Virus record (IMG/VR): IMGVR_UViG_3300026088_000015
Span: 8,472 to 72,471 of that record
DNA length: 64,000 bases
From: a virus
Lineage: Duplodnaviria; Caudoviricetes
Strand: one strand, 5' to 3'
Position 1 is the stretch's first letter, and every line of letters begins with the position of its first letter. A model generated the notes under the pieces. It was given only the letters and a program-made list of their open reading frames with translations. It was not told where the DNA came from and did not search any database. This document shows, one piece after another, positions 24,547-64,000 of this stretch. The position numbers and the translations under genes were made by a program.

Positions 24547-24577
24547 TTTTAACAACCAGTAACTAAAACAGACAAGG

Positions 24578-24796
24578 ATGAAAAACTATTTAAATTTATT
24601 AAACTCAATATCAAAAGGAATGCTAGTATTCTCAATATTAACAGCAATGGGCTACTTAGTATTCTCATTTAACTATCTTTCATTTAATCCTCATAACTGG
24701 ACTTTTCAGGCTCGGACTGTATTTGCTGGCTGCGATATAGGAGCTATTTTAATAGGTACTATTGTAGGCTTCTGTACACATAATGATGTTAAATAA
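24578..24796 (+). CDS. Small two-TM protein
   Basis: Hydrophobic segments. Confidence 0.55.
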   Translation: MKNYLNLLNSISKGMLVFSILTAMGYLVFSFNYLSFNPHNWTFQARTVFAGCDIGAILIGTIVGFCTHNDVK

Positions 24797-24822
24797 TTTT
24801 TAACAATAAGGAGAGACAGACA

Positions 24823-25167
24823 ATGAAAGAGTATCCAAAAGCAATAAAAGACCTTGAAAAGTTACTTAGTGATTTAAAAAGGGATCATGACCTCTATGAA
24901 GAAAGGAAAGATAATCCTGATTTTGACGAATGGAGGGAGGCCAGAAATAGGCTTACATTCCAAGAGGGTAAAAAGCTTTGGTTAGAAGTAGAGGTAAAAG
25001 ACAGGGAATCTTTTGAGGCACTTTATTATATGCTTTATAACAAAGATGAAAATCAAGTAAGAGTATGTCCATTGGGATGTCAACTTGAAGTTATTCATTT
25101 TATTGCGCCAGGAGCTGATGAACTAAAACAAAAAATGAATACTCTCATAAATTCATATAATCAATAA
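24823..25167 (+). CDS. Hypothetical protein
   Basis: ORF track. Confidence 0.55.
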   Translation: MKEYPKAIKDLEKLLSDLKRDHDLYEERKDNPDFDEWREARNRLTFQEGKKLWLEVEVKDRESFEALYYMLYNKDENQVRVCPLGCQLEVIHFIAPGADELKQKMNTLINSYNQ

Positions 25168-54987: not shown

Positions 54988-55511
54988 TGAATATATTTTG
55001 GATTAGGCATACCATTCTTATAGGGGAACTCAATCACTTCCTTCCTGTGTTGGAAGCAATTCATATTTTCAGGGTTTGCTGTATTGGGTTCTACCTTTGC
55101 CTTTTTATTAAACTTTGTACACCATATTTTTGCTCTGTGCATGAAGTAGCAATCACTACAGCTACAGTCAAGATTTTGACACCAAATAACTTCTTGTCGT
55201 TTAGCTTCCGCTAAAATATCTTTTCTTACTGGCTTCCATAGGTTTGGAGTCCAATATCCAGGTAACACGTCAATATTTTCCTTTGTTAATCGTTCTCCGC
55301 TCACTGAACAAATAGGGCTTGGTCTCCAATAAAGGTGCTCTAATTCCCCCAATGAATTGGTGATGAAGAATTGCTCACGACCTGTCTTTCCTCCCTGTTC
55401 AATCCAATCTCTATAGAATTTTTGAAGATCCCAAGTAAGACAAGCGTAGATAAAGAATTGCTTATCGCTCCATTGATAGTTAAATTCATATTTTTTCTTA
55501 ATCGGATTCAT
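54984..55511 (-). CDS. Hypothetical Cys-containing protein
   Basis: Coupled to the GT gene; CSVSG, CSCSDC. Confidence 0.55.
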   Translation of the reverse strand: MNPIKKKYEFNYQWSDKQFFIYACLTWDLQKFYRDWIEQGGKTGREQFFITNSLGELEHLYWRPSPICSVSGERLTKENIDVLPGYWTPNLWKPVRKDILAEAKRQEVIWCQNLDCSCSDCYFMHRAKIWCTKFNKKAKVEPNTANPENMNCFQHRKEVIEFPYKNGMPNPKYIQ

Positions 55512-55550
55512 TAATCTATTAGTCTATACCTTTACTAATGACTCTGTTTT

Positions 55551-56543
55551 TTAAAACTTCACCAATTTCTCAAATTTCTCCACTCCATAGGCATTGGTTT
55601 TTTTGAGCAGTGGGAGGAGTTCATCAGCCCGCATCACCTCCTTAGTGATCTTATTTTGCTCCATCCAACTTTTGACCCCCATCTCACAGGACCCTGTGAG
55701 CAGCCTATAGTGATTCACTGTGATCATTGTGTCTTTCTCAATCGGCTTATTCTTAAGCTTTTCTGCTACGATCTTGAACTGCAAATCTCCAAATGCTTTC
55801 TGTAGATCTTCGCCATGTGCGTAATATTCCCCCTTGTTTACCACGAAGAAATGCTCGTCTCTGTTAACCTTTTTTGCAGAATAAATTTTGCACGTCTCTT
55901 CGTTGATCGTCTGCTGCTTCTCGCTCAGAACTTCGCAGAATATACCGTCGATGTAAGCATAAATCTTGTCGTTCTTTTCCCAGAAAAAGTTGCGGTTCAC
56001 TTTAGATCCGATGTGCTTGTTGCCGTTTTTCCAATACAGGCTCCCGCCCACGGTGGGGTTGAAATTCTCGGGAATCGAGGTCAGCGAGCCAAGGTACAGG
56101 CCCCCGCCCACGGTGGGGTTGAAATTCTCGGGAATCGAGGTCAGCGAGCGAAGGTACAGGCTCCCGCCCACGGTGGGGTTGAAGTTGTCGGGAATCGAGG
56201 TCAGCGAGCCAAGGTACAGGCTCCCGCCCACGGTGGGGTTGAAGTTCTCGGGTATCGAGGTCAGCGAGCGAAGGTCCAGGTCCCCGCCCACGGTGGGGTT
56301 GAAGTTCTCGGGTATCGAGGTCAGCGAGCGAAGGTCTAGGCGCCAGCCCACGGTGGGGTTGAAGTTGTCGGGAATCGAGGTCAGCGAGCGAAGGTACAGG
56401 TCCCCGCCCACGGTGGGGTTGAAGTTCTCGGGTATCGACGTCAGCGAGCGAAGGTACAGGTCCCCTTCTATATTTTCCTCGCCCAAAAACTGGGCGACGG
56501 TTATTTTGTGATTCTTGCAGAAATCTTTTATCGGAGTAGTCAT
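55551..56543 (-). CDS. LRR-like tandem-repeat protein, copy 1 (7 full 20-aa units plus a C-terminal YAHG/TGSC domain)
   Basis: (G/W)xLxLxSLTSIP(E/D)NFNPTVG x7; ATG 56543 preferred because the tracked TTG lies inside the promoter. Confidence 0.9.
   Translation of the reverse strand: MTTPIKDFCKNHKITVAQFLGEENIEGDLYLRSLTSIPENFNPTVGGDLYLRSLTSIPDNFNPTVGWRLDLRSLTSIPENFNPTVGGDLDLRSLTSIPENFNPTVGGSLYLGSLTSIPDNFNPTVGGSLYLRSLTSIPENFNPTVGGGLYLGSLTSIPENFNPTVGGSLYWKNGNKHIGSKVNRNFFWEKNDKIYAYIDGIFCEVLSEKQQTINEETCKIYSAKKVNRDEHFFVVNKGEYYAHGEDLQKAFGDLQFKIVAEKLKNKPIEKDTMITVNHYRLLTGSCEMGVKSWMEQNKITKEVMRADELLPLLKKTNAYGVEKFEKLVKF
56041..56460 (-). repeat. 7 x 60-bp GC-rich coding tandem repeat
   Basis: Units line up on consecutive 60-nt rows; one unit counted at 37/60 GC in an AT-rich genome. 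Confidence 0.97.
56463..56531 (-). repeat. 69-bp perfect inverted repeat, arm 1
   Basis: Reverse complement is identical to 63743-63811. Confidence 0.95.
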
Positions 56544-56570
56544 TTTATCTTCGGTTAAGTTTATTTTTTT

Positions 56571-56600
56571 CAAACTTACAATAATATTTCAATAAAAGAA
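56571..56600 (-). promoter_or_regulatory. Phage-repeated promoter (-7 TAAGTTTG) driving LRR copy 1
   Basis: Minus strand TTCTTTTATTGAAATATTATTGTAAGTTTG. Confidence 0.7.
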
Positions 56601-56743
56601 ATATTTATCAAAATAAAATATTTTGCCTTTCTGTTTACTTTTTTAATAATTATTGTATATATTTGAAACAAATACTGGTAAGGACAGTATAGGTAGAAAG
56701 CATTATCAAAGACAATTTCTTAGGAAAGACGTCTCCCATGCAG

Positions 56744-56780
56744 AAGCTCAGCGTCCTTACCGCTGGGCTTTTTGCGTTTT
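56744..56780 (+). terminator. Terminator/attenuator-like hairpin in the long leader of the GIY-YIG gene
   Basis: AAGCTCAGCG-tccttac-CGCTGGGCTT then TTT. Confidence 0.55.
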
Positions 56781-57074
56781 ATACCACCAAGCCCAGCCAC
56801 CTCTAACATGCCCGGGATAGTAACGGTTCGTGTTAGTTGTACAGCGGTAAACGTGGTGAGGACCGCAGGGCAATTAAGAGGCAGCCTACCCCCGGATAGC
56901 ACACTCGATTCCGAATAGTCTTATATGTATACAAAGTGTGATTGTATACTGTGTCGTTCGATGCGCCCGACAGGACTCAGAACTAAATCGAATAAACACG
57001 ATTGTTTCACTAGGGACAATTGTGTCTTCTCCTCAACCCTCTTGATCTAGAACTAAGTTATTTTAATTAATACT

Positions 57075-57659
57075 ATGTATACAGTATATAAAATAGAGAA
57101 TATTAAAACTAAAATGATTTATGTCGGATCTACTAATAACTTTAGGGTTCGAAAATCAGAACATCTTAGTCAACTAAGAAAAGGAACCCACCCTAATAGA
57201 AAACTACAGCGTGCATTTACTGAATTCAAAGAAGAAAATTTTGAATTTTCAATAATTACAGAAAATTTATCTTCAAGAGAAGATATGCTCCTTCGTGAAT
57301 ATGAAGTAATACTTAAAACATGGGACATTAATTACAATGTAAATAAAACATGCCCAGTAGTATCAAATAAGCAATCTGGATTTTCGTATAGAAAAAATAA
57401 GGTTGGCCAGATGATAATACAAAAAGAAGGATATAAGATAGGTAAAGAGCGTAGGAATCTCCGTAATGAAAGGAAGAAAAAAAGTCCAGCACTTCAACGA
57501 ATGTTAACATTTGACAGAAGGGCCACTAGGCTGGGAATAAAATTAAAAGGGAACACTCCTGATGATGCATTAGAGCGTAAGAGAATACGGGAAGCTAGAA
57601 TTAATGGAAATAAATTCAACGAAATAGCAGATGATCTTTGCGCAAAAGAAATAAATTAG
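57075..57659 (+). CDS. GIY-YIG homing endonuclease
   Basis: VYKIEN...IYVGST...R...H...H.NRKLQRAF..F..ENFEFSII. Confidence 0.9.
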   Translation: MYTVYKIENIKTKMIYVGSTNNFRVRKSEHLSQLRKGTHPNRKLQRAFTEFKEENFEFSIITENLSSREDMLLREYEVILKTWDINYNVNKTCPVVSNKQSGFSYRKNKVGQMIIQKEGYKIGKERRNLRNERKKKSPALQRMLTFDRRATRLGIKLKGNTPDDALERKRIREARINGNKFNEIADDLCAKEIN

Positions 57660-57768
57660 TATATTTGGTTATCAATCTACGTTACTCGGGGATCACTAGT
57701 CTCCTGGGGTGTTTCGTCAAAAGTTTCCATTCAATTAAATACCACTGCTGCAAACGGTGGTATTTTTT

Positions 57769-60210
57769 TTATGATCCTACCTGCAATGTATTTGTTTTCA
57801 CTCTATCAATATTCCCCATCACCTTCTTATCGGTAATATGAGCGTCTATTTGTCCCTGACGTTGTAATTGATCGGTTTTAACTAGCCCTTCCAGTTTCTT
57901 AAGCTGCATCTGGTATTCAAACTTCTGCTTCTCTGTAAGCCTTCTTTCGTTCTCCGTAGCCTGAATTATTCTTATCTGGGAAGCTTCATTCATTTGGAGT
58001 TGAGCGACCTGCGCCTGTTGGCTAAGCTGCGCTGTCTGTTGATCTTGCTGAGCCTTTGTCTGTTGCATTTGGAGTTGTTGCTGCTGGGCTTCTCGCATGT
58101 TTTTTCTGATTGCGACATATAAGTAGGCGTTTGCTTGTTTAATAGTTTCACATTCTTTTATTCTTCCAGCATCAGAAAGTGTAATGCCGCCCTGATCCAA
58201 AGGAGTTGCTATTGCTTGAGCGATCATTTGATTGAATTCTTGCCATTCTTGAGCAGTAGGCTTGAACTCTACCATAATTGCATAGTCGTACAATGAAGTC
58301 TCTTTGTTTATTTCAAAGAACTCATATACTCCACCCAATCCTGTTCTTATTCCTTGTGCTCTGCCTTCGGCTATTGAATCCATGCCCATCATGGCCTTAA
58401 GATTCATAAGATCTTGGTATAGGTATTTCTTCGCACTGAAGAGATGCTTTATAGAATAGTCCGCTGTATCGATAGCCAAATTCGCTACCTCTTTCCCAGT
58501 ATACTGAACATTTGACCCTGCGGCAACAGAACTGAATCCTGTTATCTCTTGAAGCATGTAAAGATAGAACTTAAGAGATTCTGCCCATTGGCCGAAGCTC
58601 GATCCTAGCCCTCCTTCAATCTCTTGGAAGGGACGTGCCCCACTGTTTACCCCAGCAAGGTTCTTGGTGGACATAGGAATTATGTTATGGATAAGCATGT
58701 TTTCCATAACCTTTTCAAAGTCGTAACCATGGGCACCTAGTCCTTTGGTAGCTTCAAATAAAGCATCAGTATTGAACTCGAATCCAGGTGGCCTGGCGTG
58801 AGCTGTAGCGTTCTGCATCTGCTGCCAAGTAAGATTAGCTGCATCTGCAATTACTTTTATTTCTTCCAAGATAGAGGCAGATTTACCATTTCTCATCAAT
58901 GGTGCCTGGATGAGGATAGGAAGCTTGGTGTCTACCGGATCACTTTTAGTACGGGCCATGTTCCGGTAGAGGCCGTAGTTATAAATATAGTCTGTGCCCA
59001 CCAACCATGTTCCCTTGTAGATATTCTTAGTCCTTGTTCTGTAAAGTTCCTTATCCGGATTATTCTTCTTGAAGTCTTCTTCTTTCGGACCGTTGTTGGA
59101 TCTGCCACTATAGTATCCAAAGGCCATTTTGTCTACGCGCCTATTCCCATTTCTGTCGTTTTTAGCTACATAGGTATCTTCATCGTATGAGTAAAAGTAC
59201 ACATCCAGTACGAGAATTCTATTTTTGGCATAGACGTAATCCATATTCCTAAACCCAGCTCCTTGGGAGTAAGGGTTCCATAGTACTTGATTTCCATATC
59301 TACCTACGTTAAATTGTTCAATTTCTGAATAACAATCAGCAAGATCCGCATTGATATCTTCCTGCACTAGCTCATTCATGGTGATCATCCTGAATTTTCC
59401 TACTTCTTGATTATCTCGGAAGTCCTCATTATTACTCCACCCAACAAGTAGACTTCTTGGATCTACACGCTCAGACATTGGATTTCCATTGGCATCGTAG
59501 CATTCTTCTACTGCTACTACCCCACAGGAAATGAGGTCAAGGTCTCCTTCAGTAAGCTTCTGGTCTAATCCATTGAGGTAGCTTATATACTTCAAATAGG
59601 ATTCTATATTCATCGCTGCCTGATACGGCAATGATTCTGTCATCTTAATTTGCTCTTCAATATCATCAGCCGGAAGATCATCAAATCCTGCATCGGACAG
59701 GACTTGTAAAAGATCTGGATTGTCAAGCTGTTCAGCAAGTAATTTTATTTGTGTGGCAGCTTGAATCTTTGCCTTATATTCCTTCATGTGCTGACGCGCA
59801 AGAGGATTGACAGGAGTAGCCGTAATGGAGAACTGTACTTCAGATAACTTGCCTAATAGAATTCTAACGTATTTTGAAAGGACATTTAAAAAACGCTTAT
59901 CATAATTTACTGAAGCTACGTTCTTAGTTTCTGCTTTATTTTGATCGGCACGTTGGATGTATTTACCTGGATCGATTAGTCCTTGGAAGTATAAAATATT
60001 CTCATCCCACTGAAGGCGATTGTTAAAAAACATATTGGGGAAGTATCGATTGTAATCGACATAGATGGATTTTATATTGGCTAGAATCCACTCCTTGCCT
60101 TTTTTCTTCTGATCTATGAGCCCAGACGGCCTTCCGGAAGTAGTTATTAAGTTACCAAATTGGTCTTCATGGTAAGTTCCGGTATTGGTAACTCTGGTCT
60201 TAAATTCCAT
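57769..60210 (-). CDS. Portal protein (crAss-like, 813 aa)
   Basis: Directly after TerL; size and Q-rich coiled C-terminus. Confidence 0.85.
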   Translation of the reverse strand: MEFKTRVTNTGTYHEDQFGNLITTSGRPSGLIDQKKKGKEWILANIKSIYVDYNRYFPNMFFNNRLQWDENILYFQGLIDPGKYIQRADQNKAETKNVASVNYDKRFLNVLSKYVRILLGKLSEVQFSITATPVNPLARQHMKEYKAKIQAATQIKLLAEQLDNPDLLQVLSDAGFDDLPADDIEEQIKMTESLPYQAAMNIESYLKYISYLNGLDQKLTEGDLDLISCGVVAVEECYDANGNPMSERVDPRSLLVGWSNNEDFRDNQEVGKFRMITMNELVQEDINADLADCYSEIEQFNVGRYGNQVLWNPYSQGAGFRNMDYVYAKNRILVLDVYFYSYDEDTYVAKNDRNGNRRVDKMAFGYYSGRSNNGPKEEDFKKNNPDKELYRTRTKNIYKGTWLVGTDYIYNYGLYRNMARTKSDPVDTKLPILIQAPLMRNGKSASILEEIKVIADAANLTWQQMQNATAHARPPGFEFNTDALFEATKGLGAHGYDFEKVMENMLIHNIIPMSTKNLAGVNSGARPFQEIEGGLGSSFGQWAESLKFYLYMLQEITGFSSVAAGSNVQYTGKEVANLAIDTADYSIKHLFSAKKYLYQDLMNLKAMMGMDSIAEGRAQGIRTGLGGVYEFFEINKETSLYDYAIMVEFKPTAQEWQEFNQMIAQAIATPLDQGGITLSDAGRIKECETIKQANAYLYVAIRKNMREAQQQQLQMQQTKAQQDQQTAQLSQQAQVAQLQMNEASQIRIIQATENERRLTEKQKFEYQMQLKKLEGLVKTDQLQRQGQIDAHITDKKVMGNIDRVKTNTLQVGS

Positions 60211-60274
60211 ATATCAGCGTGATTTTTGTCCCTAATATACGAATTTAAATTTATTATGTTAAATAGATGGTTTT

Positions 60275-62320
60275 TTATTTGAAATATCCCCACATTTTAT
60301 GTATAGGCGTAGGGTCGGCCTTGGGTTCATAGGGAGCCTCAGCAGCCAAGATGGCAAACCCAGCAGCTACTGTTAAATCTCGCTGACCTCTGGTATCGTA
60401 GGTAAAGTCAAGAAAGTCCTGTATCATCCTCTTCCCGCGCAAGGCATGACCTCTTTTGGCTATATGGGTTTTTAGCCTTGTAATATACAGGTCGATGATA
60501 GAAGAGGAGGCAGAGGTTCCCAGGGTGCCTTCTATCTTCTTTTTAATGTCCATAGTGGTATTCTCCGGACGGGTCATGATGAATTGCTTATAACCTCTTC
60601 TTTTGAAGTGGTTATATATGTCAAATTTCTGGTTCTCGATGTGGATTTTACATCCAAAGAAGTGACAGGCAATGATCATGTCTTCATAGAAATCAGAAGG
60701 GTCATCTGGGTCAAATAGGTAATCTGCTATAAAGGTATCAGATCTATTTTCGCGGTGATTCATATCATACTTTCTGAAGACTGCTGCTGCTGCCTTAGAC
60801 TGTCCGTGTACGGCCTCTGACCCAGAGTTTACTGGGTCACATCCCATGGCAAAGCGTTCATCATTTTCTGGGGCATATTTATTTTCATCGAATCCATTAT
60901 CGGACACCCTGTTTTGCTGGGCTTCTATATGAAGGAAGTTTACAAACCATTTACCGGACATTTCATTAGGAGTGAACATAGCTTTTTTATCCACTTCTGC
61001 CCAGATAAAATCTCCGCGAATCTCAAGGTCTTCCACGTCATCTCCAGTAAGATTCATGCAGTATTCCTTTACCTTGGTAAGCTCCATTACGTTGAATGGA
61101 CACTTCTGAGAGTCTGTCATGAAGAGCTCGTTCTCATTGAGAGGCTGCCTTCTAATCTGAGCTGCTAGTTCTTTAGGATTCCCCTCAAGGGATTTACGAT
61201 CCTCCATAATCTTCTTAAGGTTCCCTTTGATATCAGGATTCCCATATTTATCAAAGTTCATCGCCCGATCAGCAGGCATGAAGAACTTATAGAGCCCTGA
61301 TTGGGTCCTACCATTTTCTCCCTTATTAAGAGGATTGGAGGCGTGCCACAGGATGGCAAAATTACCCCCACCATCTTCCTTATCTTCAACTGTAGTAGTG
61401 TACAGACATTTTCCTATTATTTCAGTTCCTACGGTACAGCAAAACTTAACAACGTTATGCCTTTCATAAATATCGTGCTTTACGAGCTTCCCACACTCGT
61501 CGGAGATATATCTTTTTAACTTCGATCCATCATAAGACAGCGGATCGGCAGCCTTAAAATCTATTACTGAGTTAAGTTCCTCCTCGAAGAAGGTAAGAAC
61601 ATCATCACCCTTACGGATTGTCTTGGTAAAAGAAAGCTCCCCTTTAGGGTTAGCGCCTTTGTCTTCATCGAAGATAGGCTTGAAGAAGTCTACAAGATGC
61701 TTGAATGGTGCTATGATCGCATTCCTGTAAACCGAATCACGCGCATCTACGTCGGTTTTTGATTGTATTCCTCCGCGAGAGTTTTTAGTCCTGGATATGT
61801 ATTCATAGGTAGCAGCACCAGCAAAATAGGTCTTTCCTCCGCGACGAAGAGTAGCTTCAATCATTCCAAGACAATCAGGATCTTCACAGCAATATTGCCA
61901 GAAGAGAGACTTCTCTCTGTCATTTATCCTGTACTCAGGATAGCCATCATCAATCTTCCAATGGGTTAAATAAAAATATAGCAGCCCTGTAATATAAGTA
62001 GGGTGTCCATCGTTCATAAACCATACGCCATTCAATCGTCGTTGCCACTCTGTAGTCTTAAGTACCGAAAGCTTATCGTCTTTAAAATCAGGATTAGCCT
62101 TCTGCATTCTTAGCTCAGCAGCACGCTTGGTATTGTAATCTTTAATATCAAATGGCCTTCTCCAGTACTGATCCTTTTTTTCTTTGTCAGCAAATAGTAT
62201 TTCAGTGGGCACAAGCTCTCCTGTTCCTGAGTAATAATCAGGAACAAATCCTACAGGAGGAATATGAATCTTCAGCCCCTGTATCTTTTCTATTGTGCCA
62301 CCAGCGAAAGGGGAGAACAT
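60275..62320 (-). CDS. terL: Terminase large subunit
   Basis: LRRGGKTYF Walker A, YISDECGK Walker B, AMGCDPV nuclease Asp, DLTVAAG. Confidence 0.9.
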   Translation of the reverse strand: MFSPFAGGTIEKIQGLKIHIPPVGFVPDYYSGTGELVPTEILFADKEKKDQYWRRPFDIKDYNTKRAAELRMQKANPDFKDDKLSVLKTTEWQRRLNGVWFMNDGHPTYITGLLYFYLTHWKIDDGYPEYRINDREKSLFWQYCCEDPDCLGMIEATLRRGGKTYFAGAATYEYISRTKNSRGGIQSKTDVDARDSVYRNAIIAPFKHLVDFFKPIFDEDKGANPKGELSFTKTIRKGDDVLTFFEEELNSVIDFKAADPLSYDGSKLKRYISDECGKLVKHDIYERHNVVKFCCTVGTEIIGKCLYTTTVEDKEDGGGNFAILWHASNPLNKGENGRTQSGLYKFFMPADRAMNFDKYGNPDIKGNLKKIMEDRKSLEGNPKELAAQIRRQPLNENELFMTDSQKCPFNVMELTKVKEYCMNLTGDDVEDLEIRGDFIWAEVDKKAMFTPNEMSGKWFVNFLHIEAQQNRVSDNGFDENKYAPENDERFAMGCDPVNSGSEAVHGQSKAAAAVFRKYDMNHRENRSDTFIADYLFDPDDPSDFYEDMIIACHFFGCKIHIENQKFDIYNHFKRRGYKQFIMTRPENTTMDIKKKIEGTLGTSASSSIIDLYITRLKTHIAKRGHALRGKRMIQDFLDFTYDTRGQRDLTVAAGFAILAAEAPYEPKADPTPIHKMWGYFK

Positions 62321-62596
62321 TTATTCTGGTTTATATACTTTTTCTGAAAAGTGATTGATGTAGTCATCAATACTTTTTAGATTTATATCAATGTCATTCT
62401 GCTGTGAAATCCATGCCATCCACAAAGTAAATTTTCTTGTGAAATCATAGGTAAGATCAGCATGAAATAAATCCTCACTTTTCTCTGATTCAAATGCCTT
62501 ATCTTCTACAAGAAGCCATTGTGCGGCTTTCTTATTATGAAGTTGAGTTAATTTATGGAGTGCTTTAATAACTTGTTTTTCTTCTGCCATTACCAT
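62321..62596 (-). CDS. Hypothetical protein
   Basis: ORF in operon. Confidence 0.5.
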   Translation of the reverse strand: MVMAEEKQVIKALHKLTQLHNKKAAQWLLVEDKAFESEKSEDLFHADLTYDFTRKFTLWMAWISQQNDIDINLKSIDDYINHFSEKVYKPE

Positions 62597-63246
62597 TTTC
62601 TGTTTATAGTTGAAATTTCCTCTGGAGTAGTGAGCATTAGATCAGAACTCTTATAAGTCTTAGCCACATCATCATTATCACCAAAGAACTCTTTGTAGTA
62701 ACCTTTTAGTCTCTCACGTATTTCGTCACATTCTTTTAAGATAGCACTTTTGTTTTTTGCTGCAATGGTTACATCCTTCTCATCTGTACTCTGCAATGGC
62801 TTCGCGATGATACCATGAAACTCATAGAGCGCCTGCTCTGCTGTAACAATACTAGAGAGTAATGTATTCTTCTGAATCTTGATGAAGGTCATGATCATCT
62901 TAAACACCTTCTCTTCCTTCAGATCAAAAAGCTCATCCTTTACTTTATCCCCATTAATTTCCTTAGAATCAAAGCCAGCCATCTTGGCGGCATTAAGTTT
63001 CCTTTCTCCTAAGTTGTCTCGGAAGTTCTTGATGAGCGGAGACCGCTCCGAGTACATGTAGTTGATATAATGGATAACCTTATCCCGGTTAAGCATCCCT
63101 TCAGGAGTTCCTCCATAGGAAGTAAACTCTTCATACTTCCTTATGGAGGGAGATAATTGCAGTGGGTCTCCTGCAATATTATGTATCTTTAAAAATAAAT
63201 CCTTAAACTCATCGTCAGGGAGTTTGCTATTCTTTGGTGTTATCAT
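62590..63246 (-). CDS. Possible terminase small subunit
   Basis: Helical 218-aa protein upstream of TerL; inferred from position only. Confidence 0.35.
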   Translation of the reverse strand: MITPKNSKLPDDEFKDLFLKIHNIAGDPLQLSPSIRKYEEFTSYGGTPEGMLNRDKVIHYINYMYSERSPLIKNFRDNLGERKLNAAKMAGFDSKEINGDKVKDELFDLKEEKVFKMIMTFIKIQKNTLLSSIVTAEQALYEFHGIIAKPLQSTDEKDVTIAAKNKSAILKECDEIRERLKGYYKEFFGDNDDVAKTYKSSDLMLTTPEEISTINRKW

Positions 63247-63595
63247 AATCTTCTATAATTATCTCTATTTTTTGAGATTTTCTATCTACTAAAACCTGTT
63301 TAGTAGAAAATTCGACAACTATTTTAGGGCTATCGTCAATTATTATCTTGGCATCCTTAAGGCAATCCATCGGAAGCTTTACCGAAGCTGACGCATTGTC
63401 CCAGTCCATAAATCTATTACAGTACCTTATATACGTAATTTTTACTGGTCCCTTATGCCTATTTAAAGTCTGGGAGCGTATTTTAATAAAATACCTATCC
63501 TTTCTTTTCTTCCTTGCTGAAAAGTGCTCTCTTATTAATCCTTCAGTTCCATTTAACCCTGGAGGCAATTCATCAAGCACTAATCTGGTAATCAT
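63227..63595 (-). CDS. rusA: RusA-like Holliday junction resolvase
   Basis: LPPGLN...MDWDN..K..MDCL..AKIIIDDS acidic motifs. Confidence 0.75.
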   Translation of the reverse strand: MITRLVLDELPPGLNGTEGLIREHFSARKKRKDRYFIKIRSQTLNRHKGPVKITYIRYCNRFMDWDNASASVKLPMDCLKDAKIIIDDSPKIVVEFSTKQVLVDRKSQKIEIIIEDYDNTKE

Positions 63596-63655
63596 CGACG
63601 TAAGCTACAATAATTATTCTAAATAGACAAATCGTAGAAATAATTTGATTATTGT

Positions 63656-63687
63656 TTTGTTATTGTCGAATCGATTTCCTATGTTTG
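63656..63687 (+). promoter_or_regulatory. Consensus Bacteroidota promoter driving LRR copy 2
   Basis: TTTG(63656-59)-N20-TATGTTTG(63680-87). Confidence 0.75.
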
Positions 63688-63730
63688 TTTTACAGTAAAA
63701 ATAATGGCAATTACAAAATTAAACTATAAT

Positions 63731-64000
63731 ATGAGCGAGAAAATAAAAGATTTCTGCAAGAATCACAAAATAACCGTCGCCCAGTTTTTGGGCGAGGAAA
63801 ATATAGAAGGGAGCCTGTACCTTAGCTCGCTGACCTCGATCCCCGAAAATTTCAACTCCACCGTGGGCGGGGACCTGAACCTTGACTCGCTGACCTCGAT
63901 CCCAGACAATTTCAACCCCACCGTGGGCGGGGGCCTGTACCTTAGCTCGCTGACCTCGATCCCCGACAACTTCAACCCCACCGTGGGGTTGAAATTGTCT
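63731..64000 (+). CDS. LRR-like tandem-repeat protein, copy 2 (open to window end; alternative ATG 63704)
   Basis: Own translation MSEKIKDFCKNHKITVAQFLGEENIE-GSLYLSSLTSIPENFNSTVG-GDLNLDSLTSIPDNFNPTVG-GGLYLSSLTSIPDNFNPTVG-LKLS. Confidence 0.9.
   Translation, partial: MSEKIKDFCKNHKITVAQFLGEENIEGSLYLSSLTSIPENFNSTVGGDLNLDSLTSIPDNFNPTVGGGLYLSSLTSIPDNFNPTVGLKLS
63743..63811 (+). repeat. 69-bp perfect inverted repeat, arm 2
   Basis: Identical to the reverse complement of 56463-56531. Confidence 0.95.

Follow-up and report, generated by a model that had tools for sequence, protein, structure and literature searches.

In the WD40 repeats of fungal NLR genes (Podospora het-d/het-e), concerted evolution keeps the units of one gene 80–100% identical, diversifying selection acts on a few hypervariable sites, and the unit number is polymorphic; these repeats are mis-assembled by short reads, and long reads are needed (PMC11761791). 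Repeat mining has also uncovered hypervariable leucine-rich repeats (LRRs) in a cell-surface locus of Flavobacterium psychrophilum and in proteins of Dictyostelium purpureum, in which few hypervariable positions lie on one face, the unit number varies, and recombination reshuffles the units, with variable residues rich in Y, D, H, and N (Altae-Tran et al. 2020, PMC10392669). Here, we analyzed a 64,000-nt stretch of phage DNA (the window; bases 8472–72471 of one viral contig of 72,471 nt, record IMGVR_UViG_3300026088_000015), in which one complete gene (copy 1) and the 5′ part of a second (copy 2) encode an LRR-like array with three hypervariable residues, X1, X2, and X3, in every unit. We found that this pattern belongs to a known evolutionary mode, i.e., near-identical repeats with hypervariable binding residues, and we consider concerted evolution combined with diversifying selection on the LRR binding face, with repeat shuffling, to be its probable cause (a rough probability of 0.65).

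The copy 1 protein consists of a 25-residue N-terminal cap, seven 20-aa units, and a 164-residue C-terminal domain (Table 1). Tandem Repeats Finder detected its array as a 60-nt period at 56035–56465 (7.2 copies, 92% matches) and a second 60-nt array at 63809–63987 (3.0 copies), at the very end of both the window and the contig. The latter belongs to copy 2, which resumes outside the window at contig positions 1–905 with six complete units, one unit cut at the contig edge, and the C-terminal domain; the C-terminal domains of the two copies share 93.5% DNA identity. The unit consensus is G-X1-L-X2-L-X3-SLTSIPENFNPTVG, or in full G-X1-L-X2-L-X3-S-L-T-S-I-P-E/D-N-F-N-P-T-V-G. Among the 16 complete units of both copies, X1 is encoded by GAC, AGC, GGC, or CGC, X2 by TAC, GAC, or AAC, and X3 by CGC, GGC, AGC, GAC, CAC, or AGT. 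Outside X1–X3, the only non-silent changes in these units are an E/D exchange at codon 13, one G→W, and one P→S, which bears out a statement of the original prediction (an earlier reading of the window sequence) that a near-fixed scaffold carries three variable residues. The same prediction had described every variable codon as NRC, which is true in the window, with CAC and the one AGT occurring only in the contig-start part of copy 2, and it had noted no fixed A outside X2 in CCGTGGGCGGG..CTCGCTG, which is true for the copy 1 array. The X codons account for 90 of the 173 within-array pairwise nucleotide differences (52%) vs 15% expected from their 9 of 60 positions, an excess with a binomial p = 7e-30 in the two arrays, where unit pairs are non-independent. 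Moreover, unit pairs with identical scaffolds differ at X codons in 4/4 cases.

Searches of metagenome protein sets revealed more than 600 relatives at E ≤ 0.001, the best of them 63% identical and nearly all unnamed. These relatives share one design: the scaffold is constant inside a protein and different between proteins (SLTSIPEGF, SVTSLPDGF, SLTSIPKGF, SLTSIPDTF, and other versions), with X1, X2, and X3 changing from unit to unit. A single-protein search of viral loci recovered one locus, and an alignment-based search recovered 80, from which we compiled 407 units in 69 distinct arrays. In this set, pairwise differences within arrays averaged 0.37 and 0.40 at positions 1 and 2 of X1, 0.51 at position 1 of X2, and 0.36, 0.25, and 0.34 at positions 1, 2, and 3 of X3. 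In comparison, the mean was ~0.06–0.19 at scaffold third positions (silent sites ~0.1) and mostly below 0.05 (~0.04) at scaffold first and second positions. Since more than 15% of the differences fell in the X codons in 65 of 66 related arrays, the hypervariability is a property of the family and not peculiar to this phage.

Residue usage at the three positions is restricted. Across the family, X1 is S, Y, D, N, or G, and X3 is R, S, N, G, H, or D; X2 is near-binary, with D in 192 and Y in 169 of the 407 units (Asp or Tyr in 89%). The positions are not independent of one another (chi-square p = 8e-6 for X1–X2 and 2e-7 for X1–X3): Tyr at X1 favors Asp at X2, and Asp at X2 favors Arg at X3. Such dependence among the triplets, the almost binary X2, and near-identical units with few hypervariable residues could point to a code-like modular recognition, in which the X1-X2-X3 triplet of each unit would recognize a single element of a nucleic acid or glycan polymer, in the manner of transcription activator-like effectors (TALEs). 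The D. purpureum LRRs with Y/D/H/N-rich variable pairs have been given the same reading (PMC10392669). However, we found 115 distinct triplets among the 407 units, i.e., no small alphabet, and no nucleic-acid-binding domain was detected in Pfam scans of the protein and of 36 C-terminal domains. In addition, the set Y, S, D, G, N, and R is typical of protein-binding paratopes, and LRR concave faces usually bind proteins. We therefore regard a recognition code as quite improbable.

The original prediction had raised a more specific mechanism, in which a diversity-generating retroelement (DGR) or another adenine-specific mutator rewrites AAC-type codons of each unit from a template repeat. The NRC codons of the window and a scaffold with no fixed A between the variable codons except in X2 are in line with it, and the contig is ~60% complete according to CheckV, so some genes might be missing. 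However, the reverse transcriptase that such a mechanism calls for was not found: RVT_1 (PF00078) had no match in the contig at E ≤ 10 and none at E ≤ 0.001 in 43 related viral records (completeness of at least 90% in 15 of these), with matches in the control genomes. Likewise, a blastn search (word size 7) of three units against the contig returned only the two arrays and chance matches of 12–17 nt, and thus no template-like copy.

Adenine-directed mutagenesis was not borne out by base composition either, as scaffold adenines proved no more variable than G, C, or T, and variable sites were not confined to adenines across the 69 arrays. Specifically, the 425 majority-A scaffold positions at codon positions 1 and 2 are 88% invariant, i.e., variable in 12% of arrays, compared with 11–17% for T and G; at codon position 3, majority-A scaffold sites vary in 32% vs 22–30% for the other bases. 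Within the X codons, positions with a majority of G, C, or T are at least as variable as majority-A positions. Moreover, A occupies position 2 of X2 in 385 of 407 units, a site that would be altered by an AAC-templated mutator. Variability thus follows structural position and not base identity. The codons of homologues agree with this picture: X1 and X2 are NNC in 41–57% and NNT in 41–53% of cases, tracking local GC content, and AGT, AGA, AGG, CGC, CGG, GGA, and GAA all occur at X3, with TGG also at X1.

Two further observations argue against the retroelement. Corresponding units are identical between samples (L017/L045/L048, and L082 vs the window, all of them assemblies only), and the target is a multi-unit array, unlike the targets of known DGRs, which are C-type-lectin or Ig-fold genes with one variable region at their end. 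In summary, none of the four defining features of a DGR (reverse transcriptase, template repeat, adenine restriction, and point variation among near-identical genomes) was found, and we consider this origin of the variation almost certainly wrong.

The uniform appearance of the variable codons has a simpler source. The GC content at third codon positions (GC3) is 0.88 in the window array vs 0.59 in the C-terminal domain of the same gene, in a genome with a GC content of 0.38. The variable codons of the window array look “all NNC” because the selected residues (Y, D, N, S, G, R, and H) are mostly NNY-coded and the array has this high GC3. A caveat of the original prediction, namely that GC3 bias plus positive selection could give the same pattern, is accordingly the better explanation. 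The bias extends to the family, where the GC3 of the array is above that of the C-terminal domain in 35 of 49 genes (median +0.15; Wilcoxon p = 4e-5, with genes non-independent). GC-biased conversion in recombining repeats, or a recent transfer from a GC-richer phage, might account for it.

As a proxy for population variation, we compared contigs of the same phage from other samples (assemblies, not reads), on which a neighboring 175-aa protein is encoded identically. One such contig, L082, equals the window along a 2,505-nt stretch that runs from the last units across the C-terminal domain and past it. In the array of L082, unit 3 is followed by three other units and then by units 5, 6, and 7; in place of these three units the window has unit 4, and one of the three is identical to a unit of copy 2. 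Similarly, L017, L045, and L048 have flanks that are 98.6–100% identical and arrays of 17, 7, and 5 units, built of identical unit sequences in register. The differences between near-identical phages are therefore those of whole units, with no point differences at X codons in corresponding units. Whole-unit differences are the expected product of unequal recombination or conversion and the opposite of site-directed hypermutation. The cassette shuffling named in the original prediction is consequently upheld in one respect, as units are gained, lost, and replaced between near-identical phages, and is weakened in another, as short-read assembly could mimic these changes. As a separate observation, the 17-unit array (L017:9815–10834) has a higher-order periodicity, with recurring blocks like GDLDLR-GYLDLR-RSLYLH-GDLYLSR-GNLYLR, which suggests multi-unit duplications or assembly loops.

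Unit exchange of this kind might also be programmed. In a shufflon-like arrangement, the outward-facing inverted paralogues would recombine at the quasi-palindromic unit core, inverting the 7.2-kb portal-terminase block and swapping array segments between both genes. The inverted copies with a perfect 69-nt leader in common, the sequence CCCAC(C/G)GTGGG in every unit, and the copy-2-identical unit inside the copy 1 array of L082 are consistent with this idea. However, that chimeric unit could be an assembly chimera, and general homologous recombination is expected to give the same products. No dedicated site-specific recombinase was found beside invertible segments, as it would be in a shufflon: the contig has no serine invertase/resolvase match, and its sole tyrosine recombinase (contig 24557–24952) lies ~40 kb away. 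Furthermore, two or three paralogues per phage occur in several phages, mostly in direct orientation and a few kb apart (three copies in L001; others in L022, L025, L029, and L018/L051), and their direct orientation in these five cases shows that inversion is not a family trait. A programmed switch is accordingly improbable in our view.

Next, we assessed the LRR nature of the array. The full-length AlphaFold model has a pLDDT of 84.7 (~90 or more over most repeats and ~72–84 in the last two) and shows a short strand at X1-L in every unit. In this model, the array forms a curved solenoid with a parallel beta sheet on its concave face, with structural Z scores in the range of arrangement matches. 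A Foldseek search of the full-length model against the PDB gave no significant match; after structural re-alignment of the Foldseek candidates, nearly every one of the 25 top-ranked rows was an LRR domain (Z 7.4–11.9; 147–170 residues aligned; root mean square deviation [rmsd] 3.0–5.0). The best alignment was with 8z5u_0 (Z 11.9, rmsd 3.0, 159 residues aligned), and others included LRR1 (Z 10.1), a repebody (9.7), IpaH7.8 (9.3), SspH1 (8.6), and YopM (8.6). A relative, P0076, provides a bridge to recognized LRRs: it is 41% identical, has the same cap and C-terminal domain, and contains 22-residue units (LxLxxNxLTSLPxGFNPTVGG) that pass Pfam LRR_4 (50.4 bits, cut-off 27), LRR_8, and LRR_1. P0076 also matches the LRR regions of SlrP and SspH2 (E = 8e-23 and 3e-22, respectively), as does another relative, P0167. 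Compared with the consensus LxxLxLxxN/CxL, the window unit xLxLxSLTSIP has no Asn position. Because P0076 combines LRR-passing 22-residue units with the same cap and C-terminal domain, the 20-residue unit is probably a bacterial-type LRR shortened by two residues, without the Asn position. The original prediction of an LRR-like array thus stands, as does its placement of the variable residues on a predicted xLxLx beta strand: X1, X2, and X3 flank both conserved leucines of the strand, and the pattern holds family-wide. In solved LRR proteins, the equivalent positions contact ligands on the concave face.

The C-terminal domain defines a very large phage protein family that appears to be previously undescribed. 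A profile search of 1.84 billion representatives gave 1,711 clusters (50% identity) at E ≤ 0.001, of which 1,107 were found at E ≤ 1e-10, so that at least 1,711 clusters at this identity share the domain. It is always C-terminal in the best 150 of the 1,711 matches and is preceded by varied LRR-like units (GTxITSLPDNLTVGG, GCTGLTSLPENLTVGG, and also a GATFQADQLTTIGG unit), all of which have the same variable xLxLx or xVxVx strand. The family therefore pairs a minimal 20-residue LRR scaffold with a confidently modeled domain for which we found no fold match. The AlphaFold model of the domain (pLDDT 89.8) comprises eight strands, a long helix, and a small helical part with a YRxITGAC motif, and an alignment of 36 C-terminal domains revealed nine invariant residues (D33, H77, K91, R114, T117, G118, C120, G123, and G154). 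A catalytic Asp-His-Cys among these invariants is a reading that we considered and that might apply. A Pfam scan of the 36 domains (E ≤ 1) yielded no family, a comparison with PDB sequences gave nothing below E 0.4, and a Foldseek search against the PDB gave nothing at E ≤ 0.001, although the helical tail (residues 102–164) was barely tested in it. The best match of a wide structural search (Z 5.1) was below the stated noise level of the tool, and BFVD contained only five uncharacterized, machine-named phage proteins as matches. No NEL E3-ligase structure was among the fold matches of the domain, and absence from such a list leaves a distant relation possible; the NEL fold is helical, and half of our C-terminal model is beta-strand.

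Other searches added little to the identity of the protein. Megablast of 8 kb against the phage collection gave no match, and the only tblastn matches were in Tetrasphaera phage TJE1 and two Riemerella phages. For the copy 1 protein, Pfam and PHROG gave only weak, irrelevant matches, those in PHROG being two families of unknown function, neither of them structural; PADLOC gave no match and NCBIfam none of relevance. A search of the ESM Atlas with a relative (P0107) led to viral hypothetical clusters, one with LRR_1 in 10% of its members. A literature search for the repeat motif found no paper, and broader searches gave analogues only.

Subsequently, we analyzed the genomic context of the family. 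No gene neighbor is kept across the family loci beyond a general replication and recombination setting. Most of the 148 neighbors examined have no shared-family match, and those identified are mostly helicase, RecT, RecE-like exonuclease, DNA methyltransferase, NinG/Rap, SSB, ParB, or HNH, with portal genes rare. In its own phage, copy 1 adjoins capsid, scaffold, and portal genes, and portal genes lie near family members in a few loci. This proximity would fit a virion-displayed adhesin, whose C-terminal domain would anchor on the capsid or tail and whose LRR array would bind variable host surface structures. However, the replication and recombination setting of most loci and the non-structural nature of the weak PHROG matches speak against such an adhesin, which we consider unlikely. 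No secretion signal is evident by eye in the sequence (no predictor was run). Together with the replication and recombination neighbors and the multiple paralogues, this favors a predicted intracellular (cytoplasmic) protein, made with replication and accessory genes, that probably functions in binding host protein.

Taken together, these data are consistent with the following model of concerted evolution and diversifying selection. Frequent in-register recombination (unit duplication, deletion, and conversion) would keep the scaffold near-identical inside each gene; acting within the array, and probably also between paralogues, it would amount to concerted evolution. Diversifying selection on a binding surface would maintain the differences between units at the solvent-exposed X1, X2, and X3. 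Ordinary point mutation and the reshuffling of whole units would supply new diversity, with no templated or base-specific mutator involved. The array may bind a variable host protein, plausibly a defense factor or another host factor met early in infection, and binding may bring the conserved C-terminal domain to that protein. If so, the family would be a pointer to targets of phage-host conflict and would provide a compact natural scaffold for binders, in which each unit has three defined variable positions. A bolder version, which we put forward only tentatively and think rather unlikely, is that the protein is a phage-borne retargetable binder, in which recombination-reshuffled LRR units steer a C-terminal effector domain onto changing host proteins, e.g., those of anti-phage defense. 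Were it true, the family would be the viral equivalent of the hypervariable LRR receptors that serve cellular immunity.

Several points weigh against concerted evolution with diversifying selection on an LRR face. The argument that nonsynonymous exceed synonymous differences (dN > dS) rests on non-independent unit pairs and was made without a formal codon model. Every array was taken from metagenome assemblies of short reads, in which repeats of this kind are known to be mis-assembled, and the differences in unit number and unit order between samples may in part be assembly artefacts. The array GC3 of 0.88 in a genome with 38% GC is unaccounted for by the concerted-evolution model. On the structural side, Z scores of 8–12 can be reached by repeat proteins through a similar arrangement alone, and the copy 1 protein reaches no Pfam LRR threshold and has no LRR family match at E ≤ 1.

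Table 1. Coordinates of the two gene copies and of adjoining features in the window
Feature	Position	Strand	Description
Copy 1 gene	55551..56540	−	329 aa from ATG 56540; stop codon 55551–55553
N-terminal cap	56466..56540	−	MTTPIKDFCKNHKITVAQFLGEENIE; AlphaFold: two short helices, H4–10 and H15–19
69-nt stretch identical in both copies	56463..56531	−	Equals 63743–63811 of copy 2 (alignment and exact string match)
LRR-like array	56046..56465	−	Seven 60-nt (20-aa) units; hypervariable codons 2, 4, and 6
C-terminal domain	55554..56045	−	164 aa; opens with a degenerate eighth unit, GSLYW
GC-rich intergenic stretch	56690..56960	+	Between copy 1 and the GIY-YIG-like gene
Terminator-like hairpin	56742..56772		Inside the GC-rich intergenic stretch
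GIY-YIG-like gene	57075..57659	+	194 aa, adjoining copy 1; GIY-YIG-like motif YKIENIKTKMIYVGST at its start
Copy 2, 5′ part	63731..63982	+	ATG 63731; same cap as copy 1; three units from 63809; cut by the contig end
Fold-back at the contig end	63983..64000	.	18 nt, exact reverse complement of 63904–63921; strand switch at CCCAC-C-GTGGG

The GC content of the window varies from 34 to 44% per 1-kb segment. The open reading frame (ORF) of copy 1 in the ORF list spans 55551–56573 (340 aa) and is open up to a TTG at 56573. The ATG at 56540 is the likely start, because identity with copy 2 begins 9 nt past it and the ATG of copy 2 lies at the matching place. The cap is conserved in the family as xFCKKHNITEDQFxGKEKI. 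With one half of copy 2 at the contig end and the other at the contig start, the contig very probably derives from a circular or circularly permuted genome whose assembly was interrupted within copy 2. The fold-back in its last 18 nt is most likely an artefact of assembly. Many family contigs begin or end inside the array (L002/L072, L020/L054, L032/L053, and many others), and in some of them the N-terminal and C-terminal halves sit at opposite contig ends. Short-read phage assemblies break systematically at these arrays, and the family carries the practical warning that its arrays break or scramble such assemblies.

Between copy 1 and the GIY-YIG-like gene, the GC-rich intergenic stretch folds better than its shuffles (minimum free energy −84 kcal/mol, z −3.1). 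An Rfam scan of 55000–64000 gave no match, and a tRNA search found none in this stretch. The motif at the start of the adjoining 194-aa ORF suggests that a gene of the homing-endonuclease type separates the LRR gene from the portal gene.

The closest parallels differ in which feature they share with the phage family. The type of unit is closest to the LRRs of the type III effectors IpaH, SspH1/2, SlrP, and YopM, which likewise have short bacterial-type LRRs with an LxxLP segment (alignments with Z 8–9) and place a targeting LRR before a conserved C-terminal domain. However, effector repeats are not near-identical to one another, and the NEL E3-ligase domain was not detected in the phage protein, with its partly beta-stranded C-terminal model. 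TAL effectors resemble it in their near-identical tandem repeats, few fixed variable positions, and reshuffling of units by recombination, but they use a 34-residue helical repeat with a four-letter DNA code instead of an LRR-like repeat with its many triplets. DGRs of the Bordetella phage BPP-1 Mtd type are also phage-borne and focus variation on exposed residues of a binding protein, and in the window array alone the variable codons end in C as they do there; they differ in the reverse transcriptase, template repeat, adenine specificity, and point variation between near-identical genomes, none of which was found here.

The evolutionary mode, by our comparison, matches the fungal NLR, F. psychrophilum, and D. 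purpureum cases. With 92% matches, the array has the high internal conservation of such repeats (units at least 80% identical, few hypervariable sites), and close relatives differ in unit number as given above, where a collapse of short-read assemblies is possible. The setting is different in each case. The fungal repeats are WD40 units of a eukaryotic NLR immune receptor, and the phage has 20-residue LRRs in a small protein with a C-terminal domain without a known fold. The F. psychrophilum LRRs are secreted, with a signal and type IX secretion system (T9SS) signals, and have units of ~22 residues, and those of D. purpureum are eukaryotic. In contrast to both, the phage family combines a 20-residue unit without the Asn position with a conserved C-terminal domain.

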